Virus record (IMG/VR): IMGVR_UViG_2778261515_000017
Span: 1-9,631 of that record
Source of the DNA: a virus
Taxonomy: Duplodnaviria; Heunggongvirae; Uroviricota; Caudoviricetes
Length of the DNA stretch: 9,631 nt
Strand: one strand, 5' to 3'
This document shows positions 1,260-9,021 of this stretch, one piece after another. The translations under genes were made by a program, and so were the position numbers. Each line of letters opens with the position of its first letter. The first letter of the stretch is position 1. The notes beneath the pieces are model-generated. The model searched no databases. It was not told the DNA's origin and saw only the letters and a list, made by a program, of their open reading frames with translations.

Positions 1260-1919
1260 CTATCCTTCCTGGACTTTGGTAAGCGTCAGATTTCCGCAGA
1301 ACACTGCGCCGGTGTCGATGTACATCTGGTTTGCATACACCAGTGGGTGATGTGCTGGCGTATGACCGAAGATGAACAAATCGGCACCGGTTATCTCCGA
1401 GACAATACCGTCCTGCGCGCCGCTAACCCGCTCACGATTCCATATCACCATTTCTTCCGGTACTGGCTTATCGAATGCGTATTCGTTGTGCGGGTAGTCT
1501 GCGTGGCAGATGACGACCTTCTTATTGCCGGTAACCAGTTCGATAATCATCGGGAGGTTGGTAATCTTTGGCAGAAGGTATTTGAGTTTCACATCCTGCT
1601 CAGAATCAAGTTGGTGCCACCATCCACCGCCGTTTGACATCCAATGTCCGAAACTTCCGCCGTTGACCAGTGCATCCAGCATCATCTGCTCATGGTTGCC
1701 ACGAACAGCTCGGAACCACGGCATAGTAATCAAATCCAGGCATTCGACGTTTTCAGCGCCGCGGTCAACAAGGTCACCAACGGAAATAAGCAAATCGCGC
1801 GCCGGGTCGAATGAAACTTTGTCGAGTTCGTTCATCAGCAGCGTGTAGCACCCATGCAGATCGCCGACGACGAAGATATTGCACCAGTCAGCGCCATTGA
1901 TGCGTTGATATAGGTTCAT
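1260..1919 (-). CDS. Ser/Thr protein phosphatase, lambda PPase (NinI)-like metallophosphoesterase
   Basis: Translation from the internal ATG ([26 protein letters not shown]...GDLVDRG...GNHE...FIFGHTP...) carries the calcineurin-like GDxHG/GDxxDRG/GNHE motifs and is near-collinear with lambda PPase as I recall it. SD GGGAG 8 nt upstream of the ATG at 1919. The 40-codon upstream extension of the track ORF overlaps the methylase gene and is rejected. Confidence 0.85.
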
Positions 1920-2566
1920 GCTACACGCTCCCGCCCCTGGTTGTCTGTTGGTGACAGCGGAGCATTGCTGAATGCATTTGTTAATCCGCCAATATCCAAC
2001 GCGTATCCAGGATGTAGTTGCACTGCCGGGTCTTCGCACTGATTACCCCAAACATCGAAGCCATGAGACGACTGGCGGGCGAACAGTTCAATGCGAGAAA
2101 CATCGCCTAACAATTGCACAAGTTTTTCACGAACGATATCTGGTTTTCTTGAATGCTCAAGCCGCGGTGCGGTAAATGACTGAACGATCCCTGCATTAAT
2201 GCGCGTAGGTAGTTTTCCCTTTACCGCAAACAGGCAATCTTCACTATTGGCGCGAGTCATGTGTCCCATACCCATAACCAGTTTATCTGGTTGTCGGCTA
2301 CCACATTTTATCCACGTGAAGCCCTTCATCGTCATCAGACGAAATCCCCAGGCTTCAACAACTTTTAGTGCTTCGAGTGGTTGTGTTGGCACCCACCACA
2401 TGGCCAACAGACAGTTTTCAGCGGTCAAATCCCACACAGGAAGGCGGCAGATATCCAGCACACTCATAACAGGATATTTAAAGCCGGCACCGCGATTACC
2501 ATCTGCGGCTTTGTCCCGGTATACCCAGGGTGGATCTGCATAGATTAGTGTGTATTTCTTAGTCAT
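1916..2566 (-). CDS. MT-A70-family N6-adenine DNA methyltransferase (DPPW motif)
   Basis: [14 protein letters not shown]...; the DPPW catalytic motif is characteristic of the MT-A70 family. ATG at 2566 preceded by a G-rich SD; the GTG at 2578 is an alternative start. Its TGA stop overlaps the phosphatase ATG (ATGA). Confidence 0.75.
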
Positions 2567-3265: not shown

Positions 3266-4207
3266 TTACATAGATGTTTCGTTTAATTCTTCCCGACGAA
3301 CGCTGTAAACGTCGGTGGCTTTTGCCAGCAGTTCGTCATCATCTGAAAGTTTTTGTGCAATGTATTTGTAAGCCTTATCCAGTTCGGAGACAGTGCTGTA
3401 ATTCATCGCTGCGCTGGTAAAGGCCATCAGCATTTCTTCTGGATCACGGCTATCCGCTTTACGCGTTTGCTCATCAGGCTTTTTCACTGTTTTAGCGTTG
3501 ATCAGACTATTAATTCCCGCAGCCGTAGTTGTTTGCGGAGTAATGTCTCGCTCAACGCGCGGTGCCGTTTCCTGTAATTCGTCAGGTGTATAGACGCCCA
3601 TGATTACGTCAGGACAGTGCAAGCGAGACCAGCGTTTTGTCGCAAGGTATGCGAGTTGTTGTTTCGGATCGCTGGCCCAAAGTGTGGAGTTTCTTACCTG
3701 TGCCTGAGACAGCATTAACTCGAGCACTCGAGGTTGATCCTCTCCCTTCATGGTTGCCCATACGCGAACACCGCAGCCTTCTTCGTCTTTTATAGTCCAG
3801 CCTGGTGCGATATACGGATTGCCGTTTTTGGATGTTTTCTCAACAAACTTACCGATCACGCGTTCCCACGGCCCGAACCACTCGTAGTTGATGCGATCTT
3901 TTGTTGGCGACATTGTTGAGATAACTGCGTTTACTAATTGGGCTTCATAACCTAGCGTGCCGTTCACAACATGGGTTTTCTGAGCCACGGCAAACGGGTT
4001 CATTCCCCACTGCGCAGCCTGCATTGCCACGGCCATGCAATCAGCTGGTTTCCCGGCGAGGTGCGCCGGTACCGTTACGCGGCTTTGCGCCATTACCTCG
4101 GCGAATTTCATCAGTTGGTTCAAGCCGTCTGGGCTGAAAATAGTTGCAGCAGTGCCAGCGATTGCTGTGTCTACTGGTGCGTTGATGTTTGCGATGTTGT
4201 TGCTCAT
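3266..4207 (-). CDS. recT: RecT/Redbeta-family single-strand annealing protein
   Basis: 313 aa. Shares an ERDITP segment with lambda Bet as I recall it, and sits immediately downstream of an exonuclease gene with a 4-nt ATGA start/stop overlap, the typical exo-SSAP pair. The family call has not been checked by search. Confidence 0.72.
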   Translation of the reverse strand: MSNNIANINAPVDTAIAGTAATIFSPDGLNQLMKFAEVMAQSRVTVPAHLAGKPADCMAVAMQAAQWGMNPFAVAQKTHVVNGTLGYEAQLVNAVISTMSPTKDRINYEWFGPWERVIGKFVEKTSKNGNPYIAPGWTIKDEEGCGVRVWATMKGEDQPRVLELMLSQAQVRNSTLWASDPKQQLAYLATKRWSRLHCPDVIMGVYTPDELQETAPRVERDITPQTTTAAGINSLINAKTVKKPDEQTRKADSRDPEEMLMAFTSAAMNYSTVSELDKAYKYIAQKLSDDDELLAKATDVYSVRREELNETSM

Positions 4208-5025
4208 ATGTACATATCCTGTTTACGTGCCCAGTCAGGGCGTTTAATAATTTCCACGCCACCCCATTCATCATTGATGCGGCATTCGTGATAGGTATTC
4301 AGATCCCGGCGGAACAGAGCGTGCCCGGTATCGACATCCTTCGCATCCAGCTCGAACACGCGTACCGGATACCGACCACAATCAATGCTTTCGCTCACGG
4401 CAAGAAAGAAAAAACCATGCGGCTGACCAGTAACCCTCATTGCGCCTTCACGGTACATTGCGTCCTGCACGTGGTAGCGGAATTCCTCGATGTGGCGAGC
4501 AAAACGATCCATATCTGCAACCTTTTTCACGTCGACGATTACGTTGTGCTCGTTCAGCCATTTGTCTGGACGAATTCGGCACAACTCACCCGTCTCTTCA
4601 TCGTTCCAGTACATTGATGCTTCGCAGTAACCAGGTGCTTCCAGCATCCAGCGTGCCGCCGGGTGAGCCATTGCGCTATCACGCATCAGCTCCAGTTTTC
4701 GCCACTGCTCTGCATCAAGTACCGAAATCCCCATATCCGCTACATCACGAATAAATGCCTCTTCGTCAGCTTTACCTTGTTTTGTCCGACGATCGAATTT
4801 CGGTGAAACGATGAAGCGTTTGTCAAACTCTCTAGGTTCCAGAAGCAGACAGTGCAGAGCAGTACCCATATCCAGTGCAGACTTCTTCTCTTCGTCTTCC
4901 GGAGCAGCCTTCACCCATTTCAGAAGGGCAGGGTTCTTAGCCACCATATCTAGCTGCGACTTACTCACGCCGTCACCGGCGTGGTAGTCCTCGTTGCTGA
5001 TATCGAAATAAATTCCCGGATTCAT
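4204..5025 (-). CDS. RecE-like PD-(D/E)XK exonuclease (nuclease domain only, DUF3799-like)
   Basis: 273 aa. N-terminal GIYFDISNEDYHAGDGVSKSQL resembles the start of the RecE catalytic domain. ...IRPDKW... and ...VIVDVKKV... fit D ... (D/E)xK nuclease motifs. SD GAGGG 7 nt upstream. ATGA overlaps with both neighbouring genes. Confidence 0.7.
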   Translation of the reverse strand: MNPGIYFDISNEDYHAGDGVSKSQLDMVAKNPALLKWVKAAPEDEEKKSALDMGTALHCLLLEPREFDKRFIVSPKFDRRTKQGKADEEAFIRDVADMGISVLDAEQWRKLELMRDSAMAHPAARWMLEAPGYCEASMYWNDEETGELCRIRPDKWLNEHNVIVDVKKVADMDRFARHIEEFRYHVQDAMYREGAMRVTGQPHGFFFLAVSESIDCGRYPVRVFELDAKDVDTGHALFRRDLNTYHECRINDEWGGVEIIKRPDWARKQDMYI

Positions 5026-5495: not shown

Positions 5496-5572
5496 TTACC
5501 GTTGAGGTAATAATTATGCGTATATGGTTTGATGTCAATAGATATGAGTTAAAAAAATTACCCGTTAGGTAA
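5496..5572 (-). promoter_or_regulatory. pL-type promoter flanked by two operator palindromes (OL region)
   Basis: Operators TTACCGTTGAGGTAA (5496-5510) and TTACCCGTTAGGTAA (5558-5572), centres 62 bp apart. On the - strand, a perfect -35 TTGACA (complement of 5533-5538), 17-nt spacer, -10 AATTAT (complement of 5510-5515) whose last base is the first base of the downstream operator. Predicted TSS near 5503. Confidence 0.55.
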
Positions 5573-5582
5573 TCGAATAGGC

Positions 5583-5609
5583 AATAAAAAAGCCGCCATA
5601 AGGCGGCTT
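5583..5609 (-). terminator. Rho-independent terminator downstream of the repressor gene (tImm-like)
   Basis: 8-bp GC-rich stem AAGCCGCC/GGCGGCTT (5590-5597 with 5602-5609), 4-nt loop, followed on the - strand by a U-tract (complement of the A-run 5583-5589). No T-tract follows on the + strand, so it is unidirectional. Confidence 0.7.
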
Positions 5610-5629: not shown

Positions 5630-6214
5630 TTATTGTTTGTTTTTTTCGTTCTGGTTGATGACAAATTCAATGTAACTTTCGATCTTTGCTTTCTCGGTTT
5701 CGGGTAACAATGCGTAGCGCGAGCGGTCATAGTTGATAGTCGCGGGGTCGTGCGGGTGAATCAGTAATTCATAGCCGTGACGCCCGAATGCGGATGCAAC
5801 ATTCTCCAGGGTGGAAATGGAAACGCTAACCTCATTGTTTAACAGGCGGCTGATTGTCACCTGGGCGACGCCGGATGCGCGGTGAAGTTTTCCCTGAGTT
5901 GAAAGGTCGCGGCTTTCGCTCATCCAGCGTTCCAGGTTGTGAGCCGCCAGCTGACCAATGTCGCTTGGGCCGACAGGCTGAAAACCTTCCTGAGAAAGCG
6001 AGCGATCGATATCAAGCCAGTTACGGGGTTTATTGGCGGCAGCTTCAATTTTTCGCGCAACCTGGTCGCCGATAACCTTCTTGCCAAGAGCCCAGCGGTT
6101 TACCAGATTTGCCTGAGTTCCAAGTTTTTCTGCCATCCGCGTCTGAACACCATTGAATTCACGGTCGATCAAGTCGTTGAGATTTTGCCTGCGGACGTCC
6201 TGGATACTTTTCAT
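5630..6214 (-). CDS. Prophage repressor at the cI position: dual-HTH protein (CII-like N-terminal HTH plus XRE-type HTH), with no LexA/S24 peptidase domain evident
   Basis: 194 aa. ...TRMAEKLGTQANLVNRWA... resembles the lambda CII HTH; ...GKLHRASGVAQVTISRLLNNEVSVSISTLENVASAFG... is XRE-like. Divergent from the Cro-like gene across an operator-rich region and followed by a strong terminator, which is the lambda immunity-region topology. Weak or absent SD, possibly leaderless like cI from pRM. Confidence 0.65.
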   Translation of the reverse strand: MKSIQDVRRQNLNDLIDREFNGVQTRMAEKLGTQANLVNRWALGKKVIGDQVARKIEAAANKPRNWLDIDRSLSQEGFQPVGPSDIGQLAAHNLERWMSESRDLSTQGKLHRASGVAQVTISRLLNNEVSVSISTLENVASAFGRHGYELLIHPHDPATINYDRSRYALLPETEKAKIESYIEFVINQNEKNKQ

Positions 6215-6269: not shown

Positions 6270-6343
6270 TTACCCAACAGGTAAATGCACCCCATAGGTA
6301 ACTATCCTTGATTTTTGTTACCTTATGGGTGAATATTTATTAT
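6270..6343. promoter_or_regulatory. Divergent OR-type operator region between the repressor and Cro-like genes, with a pR-type promoter
   Basis: Operators TTACCCAACAGGTAA (6270-6284), degenerate GCACCCCATAGGTAA (6287-6301) and TTACCTTATGGGTGA (6318-6332). Rightward promoter candidates: -35 TTGTTA (6315-6320), 17 nt, -10 TATTAT (6338-6343); or -35 TTGATT (6308-6313), 17 nt, -10 GAATAT (6331-6336). Either overlaps the 6318-6332 operator. No convincing leftward (pRM-type) hexamers found. Confidence 0.5.
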
Positions 6344-6368
6344 CTGAAATAAATATCAGGCAATAGCT

Positions 6369-6599
6369 ATGAGCGATAACGGACATTTCGATTTCAAAAA
6401 GCACTGGCTTGCACTTACTCCGGATGAGCGTGAAGCCTTCGCACAGGAAGCCGGAACGACGAGTCACTATATCCATACTCACTTAACAGGTAAGCGCAAA
6501 ATGCCAGGTAAAGTATTGATGAATGGGCTTTTTAAAGCCTGTAAAACAAGACAATGGCTGCGCTCAAAAGCAGAACTGGCATACTTCTTCTACTCATGA
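6369..6599 (+). CDS. Cro-like small HTH regulator (first gene of the rightward operon)
   Basis: 76 aa. HTH-like segment FAQEAGTTSHYIHTHLTGKRKMPGKVLMNGLFKAC. Divergent from the repressor gene; its promoter overlaps an operator palindrome. Confidence 0.55.
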   Translation: MSDNGHFDFKKHWLALTPDEREAFAQEAGTTSHYIHTHLTGKRKMPGKVLMNGLFKACKTRQWLRSKAELAYFFYS

Positions 6600-6620
6600 T
6601 ATCCAGCCACAACCCTCTGT

Positions 6621-6645
6621 AGACCGCCATCCGGCGGTCTTTTCA
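6621..6645 (+). terminator. Rho-independent terminator after the Cro-like gene (tR1-like)
   Basis: Stem AGACCGCC (6621-6628) / GGCGGTCT (6633-6640), loop ATCC, followed by TTTTC. Confidence 0.5.
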
Positions 6646-6749
6646 TATCTATTCGTACCTCAAAGGTAATAAAAAACCAAATATGGTTGATCTTTTTTTT
6701 GTGTCAGCACAAAATAACCGTAATCCCAATACTAATAACAGGGCTTACC

Positions 6750-6950
6750 ATGGAAATCATTACACGTATTGATGCCGCAAAGCGCGGACTTAAACGCTAC
6801 TACACCGGAAAACCATGTAAGCACGGACATGACAGTGAACGCTGGGTTTACAACGGACACTGTGTTGAGTGCACCATGGAATCAAACCGTCGCATCAGGG
6901 CAGAGATTAAGCAGATCATGATTAATTCCTCCCCACAACACTCAAGCTGA
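6750..6950 (+). CDS. Small Cys/His-rich putative zinc-binding protein (66 aa) at the cII position
   Basis: ATG 6750 with SD CAGGG; MEIITRIDAAKRGLKRYYTGKPCKHGHDSERWVYNGHCVEC... with a C-x-H-x-H ... C-x-x-C pattern. The track ORF starting at 6687 uses a TTG and is rejected as an N-terminal extension. Confidence 0.5.
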   Translation: MEIITRIDAAKRGLKRYYTGKPCKHGHDSERWVYNGHCVECTMESNRRIRAEIKQIMINSSPQHSS

Positions 6951-6965
6951 TAGCGGAGATTAATC

Positions 6966-7799
6966 ATGAGCAGACATGCAACAGATTGGGCCTGGGAGAC
7001 AGATCCAGGTAGCTCGTCATTAAAGCTCATACTGCTCTCGATGGCTGACAGAGCCGATGAATATAACCTCTGCTATCCCAGCATAGAACGCCTAGTTAAA
7101 GACACTTGCCTGAATAAAAAAACCGTACAGGCCGGGCTTATATCGCTCATGAAAATGGGGCTTATTTCAGATACCGGAGAGAGAAAGGGAGCGACGAAAA
7201 GAGTGCGGGTTTTCTCTCTTAATATAACCAAAAACGGGAACATTAAAGGCAACCGGGAAGGGGGTAACGATCCCAAAAACGGTAATGTTACCGAAAACGG
7301 GAATATACCCAAAAACGGGATGTTGAATGATCCCAAAAACGGGATGTTGAATGATCCCAAAAACGGGATCCAGAACCAGTCATATAACCAGTCATTTAAC
7401 CAAGAGAGGGAGAGCAGGACAAAAATCGGGGATTCCGTGCCCCATGACCCCGGCGCAAACAACGCCGTGATGAATAACTTTGTTCCTCCAGGTGGGCCAG
7501 GGCAATTAGGCAAATTTGTCATGCATGAACAATGGCAGCCATCAGATGACTTTCTTCGGAAAAGCTCATTGCAGGGAATCTACCTGGGCAGTCTGCCAAC
7601 GGCACAGGAACTTGCAGAGTTCAGAATTTACTGGATGGCTGAGGGTAAGGCATACCATCAGGCGCAGTGGGAGCAGAAGCTGGCAAGGCGCATCCAGTTC
7701 TGTAGACAGAAATCAGGTGAAGTCAGAAAGAGCCTTGACTGGCATAACACTGACTGGATAGATGAGGTGTGGGATGAAATCAACTCCAGAACTTCTTAA
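6966..7799 (+). CDS. Replication initiation protein (O-like): N-terminal winged HTH, central iteron-encoded repeat linker, C-terminal DnaT-like domain
   Basis: 277 aa. N-terminus LKLILLSMADRADEYNLCYPSIERLVKDTCLNKKTVQAGLISLMKMGLI is typical of phage replication-initiator HTH domains. The central NDPKNGML repeats are encoded by the DNA iterons. Immediately upstream of the P homolog. SD GGAG 7 nt upstream. Confidence 0.75.
   Translation: MSRHATDWAWETDPGSSSLKLILLSMADRADEYNLCYPSIERLVKDTCLNKKTVQAGLISLMKMGLISDTGERKGATKRVRVFSLNITKNGNIKGNREGGNDPKNGNVTENGNIPKNGMLNDPKNGMLNDPKNGIQNQSYNQSFNQERESRTKIGDSVPHDPGANNAVMNNFVPPGGPGQLGKFVMHEQWQPSDDFLRKSSLQGIYLGSLPTAQELAEFRIYWMAEGKAYHQAQWEQKLARRIQFCRQKSGEVRKSLDWHNTDWIDEVWDEINSRTS
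7228..7405. repeat. Origin-of-replication iterons inside the O-like gene, plus downstream short direct repeats
   Basis: Six copies of the core CC(A/G)AAAACGG at about 7229, 7273, 7291, 7308, 7332 and 7356. The last three are spaced exactly 24 bp apart and form the palindrome ATCCC-AAAAAC-GGGAT, resembling lambda ori iterons. Followed by AACCAGTCAT direct repeats at 7374-7383 and 7386-7395. Four GATC sites fall within 7269-7370. Confidence 0.65.
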
Positions 7800-8556
7800 T
7801 GAGTACTATCGCTTTCGTGGTGGGCATGACCACTCGACGGTGGTTGCTTCTGCTGACGATGAAAGGGCAAAGAAGGAGCAGGTTGCAAGAATTTTCAACG
7901 AAATGTTTGTCCAGTTGCAGGCTGCATTTCCAGGCAGCATCGCTGCTATCAGCGAACAGGGAAAGCTAAACGAATTTCGAAAACAATGGATGCTTGCGTT
8001 TCTGGAGAATGGGATCACTACAATGGAACAGGTTAACGCTGGTATGCGCCACGCCCGCGCCAGTGAATCTCCGTTCTGGCCGTCGCCTGGGCAATTCATC
8101 AAGTGGTGCAAAGACAGCAAGATGGTTCTTGGCGTCACCATTGACGATGTGATGGCGGAGTTTCATCGGTACAGCAAGGAAAAAAGTTTATATCCTGGTG
8201 GTCCAGAAAGATTCCCGTGGCGACATCCGGTTATGTACTGGGTTGTATGTGATACCCGCCGCGCAATGTATCAGCGCCAGCTTAGCGAGATTGAGGTTGA
8301 GAAACACGCGCGCAGGCTGCTCGATGATTGGGCGAAAAAGGTGGCTTCCGGACAGCAGATACCCGATCCGGTGATCAGCATACAGGCAAAGCCAGAACCC
8401 ATGAGTACGCCTCCGGACACAGGGAGAGACGTTTACCATCCACCAGGGCGAAGTTTCGGGTGCATGCCTAACGCCGCCACCCTGGGGGGAATAACACCGG
8501 CGCAGTGGCTGATGGAGGAATACAGGCGGGGAAAGGCGGCAGGATTTATCAAGTAA
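7774..8556 (+). CDS. P: Replication protein P homolog (DnaB helicase loader)
   Basis: Contains ...FLENGITTMEQVNAGMR...FWPSPGQF..., near-identical to the lambda P segment FRENGITTMEQVNAGMR...FLPSPGQF as I recall it. ATG 7774 with SD GAGG; 26-nt overlap with the end of the O-like gene. Confidence 0.85.
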   Translation: MKSTPELLNEYYRFRGGHDHSTVVASADDERAKKEQVARIFNEMFVQLQAAFPGSIAAISEQGKLNEFRKQWMLAFLENGITTMEQVNAGMRHARASESPFWPSPGQFIKWCKDSKMVLGVTIDDVMAEFHRYSKEKSLYPGGPERFPWRHPVMYWVVCDTRRAMYQRQLSEIEVEKHARRLLDDWAKKVASGQQIPDPVISIQAKPEPMSTPPDTGRDVYHPPGRSFGCMPNAATLGGITPAQWLMEEYRRGKAAGFIK

Positions 8557-8560
8557 TACC

Positions 8561-8581
8561 AGCGCGATAGCGCATTTTTTT
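8561..8581 (+). terminator. Weak terminator-like hairpin plus T-run just after the P stop codon
   Basis: Short stem AGCGC / GCGCA around loop GATA, then a T-run 8575-8581. The stem is only about 5 bp, so this is marginal. Confidence 0.3.
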
Positions 8582-8593
8582 ACGTCTCAATAA

Positions 8594-8670
8594 TTACCTA
8601 TTGGGTAATAAAATATTCTAAACTCTATTGATTTCGTGTCTTATGTGGTTTTTAATTACCTCAAGGGTAA
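8594..8670 (+). promoter_or_regulatory. Third operator-flanked promoter (P3) upstream of the DUF1064-like gene; same geometry as the pL-type cassette
   Basis: Operators TTACCTATTGGGTAA (8594-8608) and TTACCTCAAGGGTAA (8656-8670), centres 62 bp apart. -35 TTGATT (8628-8633), 17-nt spacer, -10 TTTAAT (8651-8656) ending on the first T of the downstream operator. Gap from upstream operator to -35 is 19 nt, as in the pL-type cassette. Confidence 0.5.
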
Positions 8671-8673
8671 ATC

Positions 8674-9021
8674 ATGAGAAAACAGATACAGGCTCTTGGT
8701 CGACTCAAAACAGGCCAGATGAACAAAACAGAATCTGCGTATTGCCAGCACCTTGAGCAGCGTAAACGCGCAGGGGAAATCGCCTGGTATCGATTCGAGG
8801 GTATCAAGCTGCGGTTAGCCGACAACACGTTCTATACGCCCGATTTTGCTGTGATGCTCGCCACCGGAGAGATGGAACTGCACGAAGTGAAAGGGGGATT
8901 CTGGACCGACGACGCCAGGGTGAAAACCAAAGTAGCCGCAGATCAGTATCCGTTCCGAATCATCGGGGTAACGGTTAAACCAAAGAAAGCAGGTGGTGGC
9001 TGGAACATCGAAGAATTCTGA
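8674..9021 (+). CDS. DUF1064-family phage protein (possible PD-(D/E)XK-like fold)
   Basis: 115 aa. ...NKTESAYCQHLEQRKRAGEIAWYRFEGIKLRL...YTPDF...ELHEVKG... matches the DUF1064 signature as I recall it. Its start codon lies 4 nt downstream of an operator palindrome. Confidence 0.6.
   Translation: MRKQIQALGRLKTGQMNKTESAYCQHLEQRKRAGEIAWYRFEGIKLRLADNTFYTPDFAVMLATGEMELHEVKGGFWTDDARVKTKVAADQYPFRIIGVTVKPKKAGGGWNIEEF

Follow-up and report, generated by a model that had tools for sequence, protein, structure and literature searches.

The early rightward genes of phage lambda are arranged in the order pR-cro-nutR-tR1-cII-O-P, and the terminator tR1 is Rho-dependent. The lambda type is further marked by an arginine-rich N as the product of the first pL gene and by delayed-early genes that lack a promoter of their own downstream of the terminator. 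In the put type of HK022, a two-stem-loop RNA is located between promoter and terminator. Phage P1 has a C1 repressor with many operators scattered over its genome. The Rep/Ant switch of the Salmonella phage SPC32H (PDB 5D50/5D4Z) is reportedly described by Kim & Ryu (2013) and Kim et al. (2016).

The nearest described relatives of the locus discussed here are phiV10 and epsilon15. According to the GenBank record of phiV10, its genus, Uetakevirus, comprises the epsilon15-like temperate podoviruses. In the Salmonella phage epsilon15 (AY150271.2), as in phiV10 and in our DNA, the half-sites of the repressor read ATTACC...GGTAAT, and the genes follow each other as repressor, Cro-like, Zn-ribbon and replication genes. 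The epsilon15 record annotates repressor sites before the terminase gene, gp3, the tailspike gene and a post-replication gene, and also OL; they match sites in phiV10. After gp39, the Cro-like gene, it annotates neither site nor promoter, whereas both are predicted in our DNA. In phiV10 (DQ126339.2) the element equivalent to the terminator treated below is already annotated as 'putative rho-independent terminator' (33078-33100). The ZX5 paper predicts four promoters and presents the region after the Cro-like gene without detail. In the full texts that were accessible, no mapping of transcription starts or transcripts was found for these phages. Already known are the terminator annotation, the dispersed operators of epsilon15 and structures of the repressor family. 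What appears to be new is modest and may already be contained in Kropinski 2007 or the Kim papers: an operator with a promoter right behind the terminator and the reading of pL, p2 and p3 as one repeated module.

We here analyse a stretch of 9,631 nucleotides, called the window. Between 5300 and 7000 it shares 98.9% identity with Escherichia phage phiV10 (DQ126339.2) and agrees fully (100%) with E. coli strain rl0044; related copies of this region were found in 562 out of 5426 complete E. coli genomes (~10%). Judged by such matches, the window belongs to a phiV10/epsilon15-type (Uetakevirus) podovirus prophage of E. coli and not to a lambdoid phage. Its gene order looks lambdoid: P4-type integrase, leftward early operon (exonuclease, RecT, AlpA-like and PerC-like genes plus a methylase), repressor, Cro-like, Zn-ribbon, DnaT/O-like, lambda-P-like and DUF1064 (Table 1). 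Like lambda, it has a repressor gene, a divergent Cro-like gene, a terminator and replication genes including a P homologue. Unlike lambda, it has no N, no boxA/boxB, only 21 non-coding nucleotides between the Cro-like stop codon and the terminator hairpin, an intrinsic instead of a Rho-dependent terminator, and a predicted repressible promoter behind it. With P1 it shares that one repressor apparently controls many transcription units directly. The proteins and operators of the two phages are, however, unrelated, and the units of the window are bounded by terminators 14-19 nt before the upstream operator.

Table 1. Features of the window, and sites of the second palindrome in two related genomes
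Feature	Position	Strand	Description
pL module	5496-5609	-	repressor-gene terminator 5609-5590; operator 5572-5558; TTGACA 5538-5533; AATTAT 5515-5510; operator 5510-5496
Gene of repressor Rep	5630-6214	-	194 aa, two HTH domains; Pfam HTH_3; match to PDB 5D50
Operators at pR	6270-6284; 6287-6301; 6318-6332		first two upstream of pR, third overlaps pR
pR	6315-6343	+	TTGTTA, 17 nt, TATTAT; weight-matrix rank 2 in the window
Cro-like HTH gene	6369-6599	+	ORF, 76 aa; PHROG 35 'transcriptional repressor', E = 9.5e-13; equals phiV10p41
Putative intrinsic terminator	6621-6648	+	8-bp stem, tetraloop, then UUUCAUAU; would close the pR/Cro-like unit
Predicted operator O(up) of p2	6655-6669		GTACCTCAAAGGTAA; one mismatch to TTACC-N5-GGTAA
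Second palindrome	6675-6688		AACCAAATATGGTT; overlaps the p2 -35 by two bases
Predicted promoter p2	6687-6715	+	-35 TTGATC 6687-6692, 17 nt, -10 CAAAAT 6710-6715; Zn-ribbon/O-like/P-like operon
Degenerate downstream operator of p2	6715-6729		TAACCGTAATCCCAA; four mismatches; abuts the -10
Zn-ribbon gene	6750-6950	+	66 aa; PHROG 1081; equals phiV10p42; heads the predicted p2 unit
DnaT/O-like gene	6966-7799	+	ORF and family searches
Lambda-P-like gene	7762-8556	+	Pfam lambda-P, E = 4e-53
p3 module	8561-8670	+	weak terminator 8561-8581; operator 8594-8608; TTGATT 8628-8633; TTTAAT 8651-8656; operator 8656-8670
DUF1064 gene	8674-9021	+	downstream of the p3 module
Degenerate AACCATATATGGTT copies	5516-5529; 8637-8650		
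AACCATATATGGTT sites in phiV10	3305; 20539; 20918; 24736; 33132		
AACCATATATGGTT sites in epsilon15	2985; 19937; 24748; 33749		

The terminator behind the Cro-like gene and the predicted promoter p2

The Cro-like gene is the sole gene of the pR transcription unit. The hairpin that follows it (6621-6640) consists of AGACCGCC, the loop ATCC and GGCGGTCT; 6 of its 8 bp are GC, and TTTCATATCT comes next. This is the G+C-rich hairpin directly before a U-tract that is expected of an intrinsic terminator. The U-tract is short: the tail after the stem reads UUUCAUAUCU, with four U ahead of the first C. The hairpin energy of the element is -14.5 kcal/mol. Its 65-nt context folds with -15.3 kcal/mol (z = -3.5), and none of 200 shuffles was equally stable. 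An earlier note on this DNA had proposed a plausible intrinsic terminator (6621-6645) between the Cro-like and the Zn-ribbon/O/P genes; the fold and the phiV10 annotation bear it out. The d-score of d'Aubenton-Carafa ranges from 6.6 to 16.8 with the assumed end of the stem, as compared to 25.3 for the terminator of the repressor gene. By these values the terminator would be of only moderate strength.

The stem is kept among relatives. In all 48 distinct phiV10-type versions from viral contigs it is identical or has a G.U-compatible change (GGCCGCC, GACCGTC), and the loop is free to vary, with six variants. Likewise, the hairpin is retained in 78 of 78 distinct viral-contig versions of the p2 type, which differ in their loops and whose stem changes are solely G.U-compatible. 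Two distant versions (L109 and L119) have one stem pair changed from A-U to G-C and six U, i.e., a stronger terminator. The homologous hairpin of the epsilon15 and Klebsiella clades stands without a U-tract (d about -30 to -39), yet conservation of the promoter block is complete. In these clades transcription from pR must pass the hairpin. Since the hairpin is kept in all 78 versions, with variation only in its loops and at G.U-compatible stem positions, it may double as an mRNA 3'-end or stability element.

According to the earlier note, no operator-bearing promoter follows the terminator. This cannot be upheld. A predicted operator with a single mismatch begins 14 nt past the terminator stem, and 17 nt beyond its end stands the -35 of a predicted promoter, p2 (TTGATC-17-CAAAAT). 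Transcription would be expected to start near 6722, 28 nt ahead of the Zn-ribbon ATG. In a scan with a frequency-weighted matrix, based on frequencies from published compilations, p2 scored 10.43 and ranked third among the 95,960 -35/-10 configurations of the window, after pL and pR. In the phiV10 genome it is within the top 25 promoters of the same matrix; nine of these 25 lie at most 120 nt from an operator, a zone that makes up 6.6% of the genome. A plain consensus scan missed p2 because its threshold was at least 9/12; p2 matches the consensus in 8/12 positions only, A2 and T6 of the -10 included.

The p2 block was compared in 11 relatives: phiV10-like E. coli phages, ZX5, the Enterobacter phages Tyrion and BUCT554, two Klebsiella phages, epsilon15, SPC32H, and prophages of Citrobacter, Erwinia dacicola and Superficieibacter. 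Invariant are GGTAAT, CC..AT..GGTTGAT and AAAAT. The 16/17-nt spacer, the leader and the segment preceding the hairpin vary. Hexamers 16-18 bp apart that are conserved over a variable spacer are what is expected of a sigma-70 promoter. In ZX5, TL-2011b and HEMP4 the homology to the window stops at ~6692, between the -35 and the spacer of p2. These three have a different replication module, yet CAAAAT is found 16 nt after TTGATC. The break looks like a mosaic joint at the promoter; a break at p2 (compare L002 3893) is also seen in other phages.

When viral contigs were scanned for the pattern, 119 matches were obtained, 91 of which (78 distinct) represent the p2 locus; most of the others are a coding motif of unrelated phages. 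Since the pattern itself contained TTGAT and GGTAAT, their constancy in this set is not evidence. The hexamer xAAAAT was outside the pattern: (C/G/A)AAAAT occurs 16-18 nt from the -35 in every one of the 78 distinct versions, and L109 and L119 have TATAAT at the equivalent place. The conserved block from the operator to the -35 is palindromic, so some of the conservation could serve another protein, not RNA polymerase.

Two promoter-like sequences on the minus strand were discarded. CTGACA 6707-6702 / CATATT 6685-6680 (rank 38, antisense to the Cro-like gene) was rejected, as its -35 sits in the variable p2 spacer and lacks conservation among relatives. The pL core (palindrome, TTTTAT, operator) recurs on the minus strand, but this copy has no -35 (AAAAAG) and was set aside.

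We consider the following course of events likely. The hairpin and its U-tract would end a one-gene unit that extends from pR to the Cro-like gene, and it would not have to be overcome. Transcription of the replication operon (Zn-ribbon, DnaT/O-like and P-like genes) would start at p2, a sigma-70 promoter with a site for the prophage repressor upstream (6655-6669) and a decayed second site abutting its -10. Upon removal of the repressor, all early units would be switched on in parallel, without N/nut, put or a Q-type cascade. Very probably, then, the replication genes have a conserved, repressor-controlled promoter of their own, and a lambda-style antiterminator is not needed for that reason. 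The earlier note had left the choice between an unrecognised promoter in 6646-6749, a leaky terminator and RNA-based or other antitermination. The first has materialised as the conserved predicted p2, a dedicated promoter downstream of the terminator such as would undo the puzzle; partial leakiness is likely; and for the third nothing was found, nor did an N-like protein or a nut site emerge from the searches described below.

Leakage could, of course, be more than an accessory. In that case read-through from pR would be the main source of replication-gene mRNA, with p2 as a minor one. The four U before the first C, the d-score of 6.6-16.8 against 25.3, and the epsilon15 and Klebsiella hairpins, where read-through is required, speak in its favour. 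What it leaves unexplained is the presence of TTGATC, a 16/17-nt spacer and xAAAAT in every relative, even in those with a swapped replication module, and of an operator that follows the terminator in a layout like that of pL and p3. As the main route, leakage appears unlikely to us. The two views are compatible, and some read-through is likely to occur besides initiation at p2.

Operators, the repressor and a second palindrome

The operator motif was defined as TTACC-N5-GGTAA, the palindrome that flanks pL and pR. If up to two mismatches are allowed, the window contains 11 matches, where 2.7 are expected and every shuffle had fewer than 11. Operators start at 5496 and 5558 (flanking pL), at 6270, 6287 and 6318, at 6655, and at 8594 and 8656, the last two forming a perfect pair. 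The three at 6270-6318 overlie pR and, likely, the promoter of the repressor gene. The site at 6655-6669 matches the palindrome and is found at the same place in relatives. Its right half, GGTAAT, is invariant in the 11 relatives. The left half, imperfect in the window (GTACC) and still less regular in some of the relatives (AGTCC, AACTC), keeps CC and is otherwise variable; nnACC is present in 69 of 103 distinct viral-contig pattern matches. The epsilon15 copy (ACACCTTTCTGGTAA) has two mismatches and goes with the hairpin that lacks a U-tract. The downstream operator, decayed in the window, is nearly intact in BUCT554 (TTACCGTAATAGTAA, one mismatch), where it likewise abuts the -10.

The repressor of the window is a full-length homologue of the SPC32H Rep (PDB 5D50; E = 4e-42, residues 1-190) and, by its sequence, distinct from lambda-type cI. 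Between this repressor and the one of the epsilon15 type, an identity of only about 42% is reported (PMC9782041). For SPC32H, which has the same conserved p2 block, Rep is reported to bind DNA in tetrameric form (PMC9638917). Both at pL and at p3, the two operators are 62 bp apart, which would fit a tetrameric repressor that holds two sites at once. Rep would be expected to bind the predicted operator 6655-6669, too.

When pL (minus strand, 5612-5488), p2 (6618-6738) and p3 (8558-8678) are aligned, one common layout emerges: a terminator hairpin with a T-run, an operator, 17-19 nt, TTGAnn, 17 nt, a -10 and a second operator, the first T of which is the last T of the -10. By this alignment, the three are copies of one module. 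The terminator of the p3 module is annotated in the GenBank record of phiV10.

The same repressor sites are spread over the whole phiV10 genome. Perfect operators number 8, with 0.02 expected, and 14 have at most one mismatch, with 1.2 expected. They are found before the terminase gene, p06, the antirepressor gene and int, at p24/tail-fibre and oac/lysis, and at OL, OR, p2 and p3. All are intergenic except a pair at 87-119, which falls within the terminase gene as annotated, at its 5' end; the start of this gene, annotated at 41, is probably called too early, the true one probably being at about 120. From these scattered intergenic operators the phage appears to run separately repressed, terminator-bounded transcription units. 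In view of the common layout at pL, p2 and p3 and the operators at most other units, Rep most likely shuts off each unit directly.

Between the operator and the -35 of p2 lies a second palindrome. Its motif, AACCATATATGGTT, has 8 matches with up to three mismatches, as compared to 1.8 expected. The sites are 20-53 nt away from Rep operators and occupy matching places in phiV10 and epsilon15; in phiV10 they occur at p2 and four other places. In three promoters that lack a -35, AACCATATATGGTT is followed after exactly 7 nt by TATAAT, TAATAA or TAATAG. A second regulator might bind here, perhaps the Cro-like protein, which is well conserved (75-83% identity in epsilon15 and Tyrion). A sequence-based comparison of a profile of this protein with the PDB found no relative. 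That the one-gene pR unit encodes a second global regulator binding AACCATATATGGTT, and not a Cro of the lambda type, is a tentative idea that we hold to be rather doubtful. If it were true, the terminator would separate a regulator gene from its targets, and the middle and late genes would be timed by a diffusible activator or repressor at many terminator-bounded promoters, which would functionally replace N/Q antitermination.

A tetrameric Rep as reported for SPC32H (PMC9638917) implies that distant sites could cooperate. The operator 6655-6669 might accordingly be an auxiliary one, a looping partner of OR or a roadblock, and 6670-6715 might bind another regulator without being a promoter. 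The recurrence of the palindrome AACCAAATATGGTT beside operators of phiV10 and epsilon15 would agree with that. Such an assignment does not account for a -10-like hexamer at a fixed distance from TTGAT over variable spacers, for TATAAT in L109 and L119, or for a weight-matrix score that is the third best of the window; moreover, if p2 did not exist, it would not be evident how the clade with a good terminator expresses its replication genes. We regard it as very improbable and keep to p2 as a promoter.

Searches for antitermination

The absence of an N-like antiterminator and of nut sites, as claimed in the earlier note, was confirmed, and so was that of an arginine-rich motif in the first pL ORFs of 50 and 99 aa. 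The pL products (50 aa and 99/104 aa) have no antiterminator match in Pfam, PHROG or NCBIfam and no arginine-rich stretch; the first pL gene is thus not an arginine-rich N as in the lambda type. Family searches detected no N or Q family among the early proteins of the window and 25 small or unknown proteins of phiV10. The arginine-rich stretches of the window are confined to out-of-frame ORFs that lie within the genes for RecT and the exonuclease. On both strands, no boxA (CGCTCTTA-like, at most one mismatch) followed by a boxB hairpin with a GNRNA-type loop was detected; the window contains four hairpins with GNRNA loops, all away from boxA-like matches.

The suggestion of RNA-based antitermination with put-like stem-loops in the pR transcript found no support. 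The transcript 6350-6620 is no more structured than its shuffles (z = +0.47), and a two-stem-loop RNA like that of HK022 was not seen between promoter and terminator. Rfam, searched with permissive thresholds over the whole window, gave chance-level matches only, all below gathering scores and most of them on the terminator of the repressor gene; as Rfam may lack a put model, this is a weak test for put. That a protein other than N/Q or an RNA element of another kind carries pR through the terminator is hardly credible: early proteins without known function do exist (the 50-aa and 99-aa pL products and the Zn-ribbon protein), but no antiterminator family, no nut site and no Rfam match above chance was found, no more than 21 non-coding nucleotides stand before the hairpin, the pR transcript folds no better than its shuffles, and with p2 such a mechanism would be superfluous.

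The replication genes differ from lambda-type delayed-early genes in that a promoter of their own, p2, is predicted behind the terminator (6687-6715). A terminator before replication genes need not imply hidden antitermination if the next unit has its own repressible promoter. An unannotated, predicted operator-promoter pair is hereby added to the regulatory map of a prophage family that about 10% of the complete E. coli genomes carry. It may be of use in annotating and engineering phiV10-type phages; a new principle it is not.

Neighbouring genes and further sites in phiV10

If the ends of the phiV10 sequence are joined (39000-39104 to 1-125), the region before the terminase gene presents a terminator, the operators 87-101 and 105-119, and then the probable start codon. 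No convincing sigma-70 promoter was found between this terminator and the terminase start. Before the antirepressor gene of phiV10, an operator is at the centre of a 41-nt perfect palindrome (20484-20524; GGAGTGCTTATAT-TTACCGCAAAGGTAA-ATATAAGCACTCC). The -10 of a strong predicted promoter (TTGCAA-17-TATATT) directly adjoins this operator.

The DnaT/O-like gene contains tandem repeats (7272-7402), made up of CCCAAAAACGG-containing units of 18 and 24 nt and then a 12-nt repeat. The 24-mer is present in 2.6 perfect copies. The repeats also encode the repeated peptide NGMLNDPK and resemble the origin iterons inside lambda O.

RecT (313 aa) and the exonuclease (273 aa) are separate genes with a 4-nt overlap in the window and in ZX5. 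The same span is annotated as a single RecE-RecT fusion in phiV10 (window 3266-5025, as compared to L001 3966-5726), which is either a real fusion or due to a frameshift in one of the records. Beside the integrase gene, the window has a 259-aa ORF (1260-2039, minus strand) that looks metallophosphatase-like by eye. At this position phiV10 has a small DUF1382 gene, another module swap.

When searched against genome contigs, the Cro-like protein matched 6 loci. A contig of Corallococcus exercitus (L005, 408 nt, coverage 0.75) encodes a Cro-like protein 99% identical to that of the window and has the same terminator behind the gene; the contig almost certainly represents a contamination of the myxobacterial assembly.
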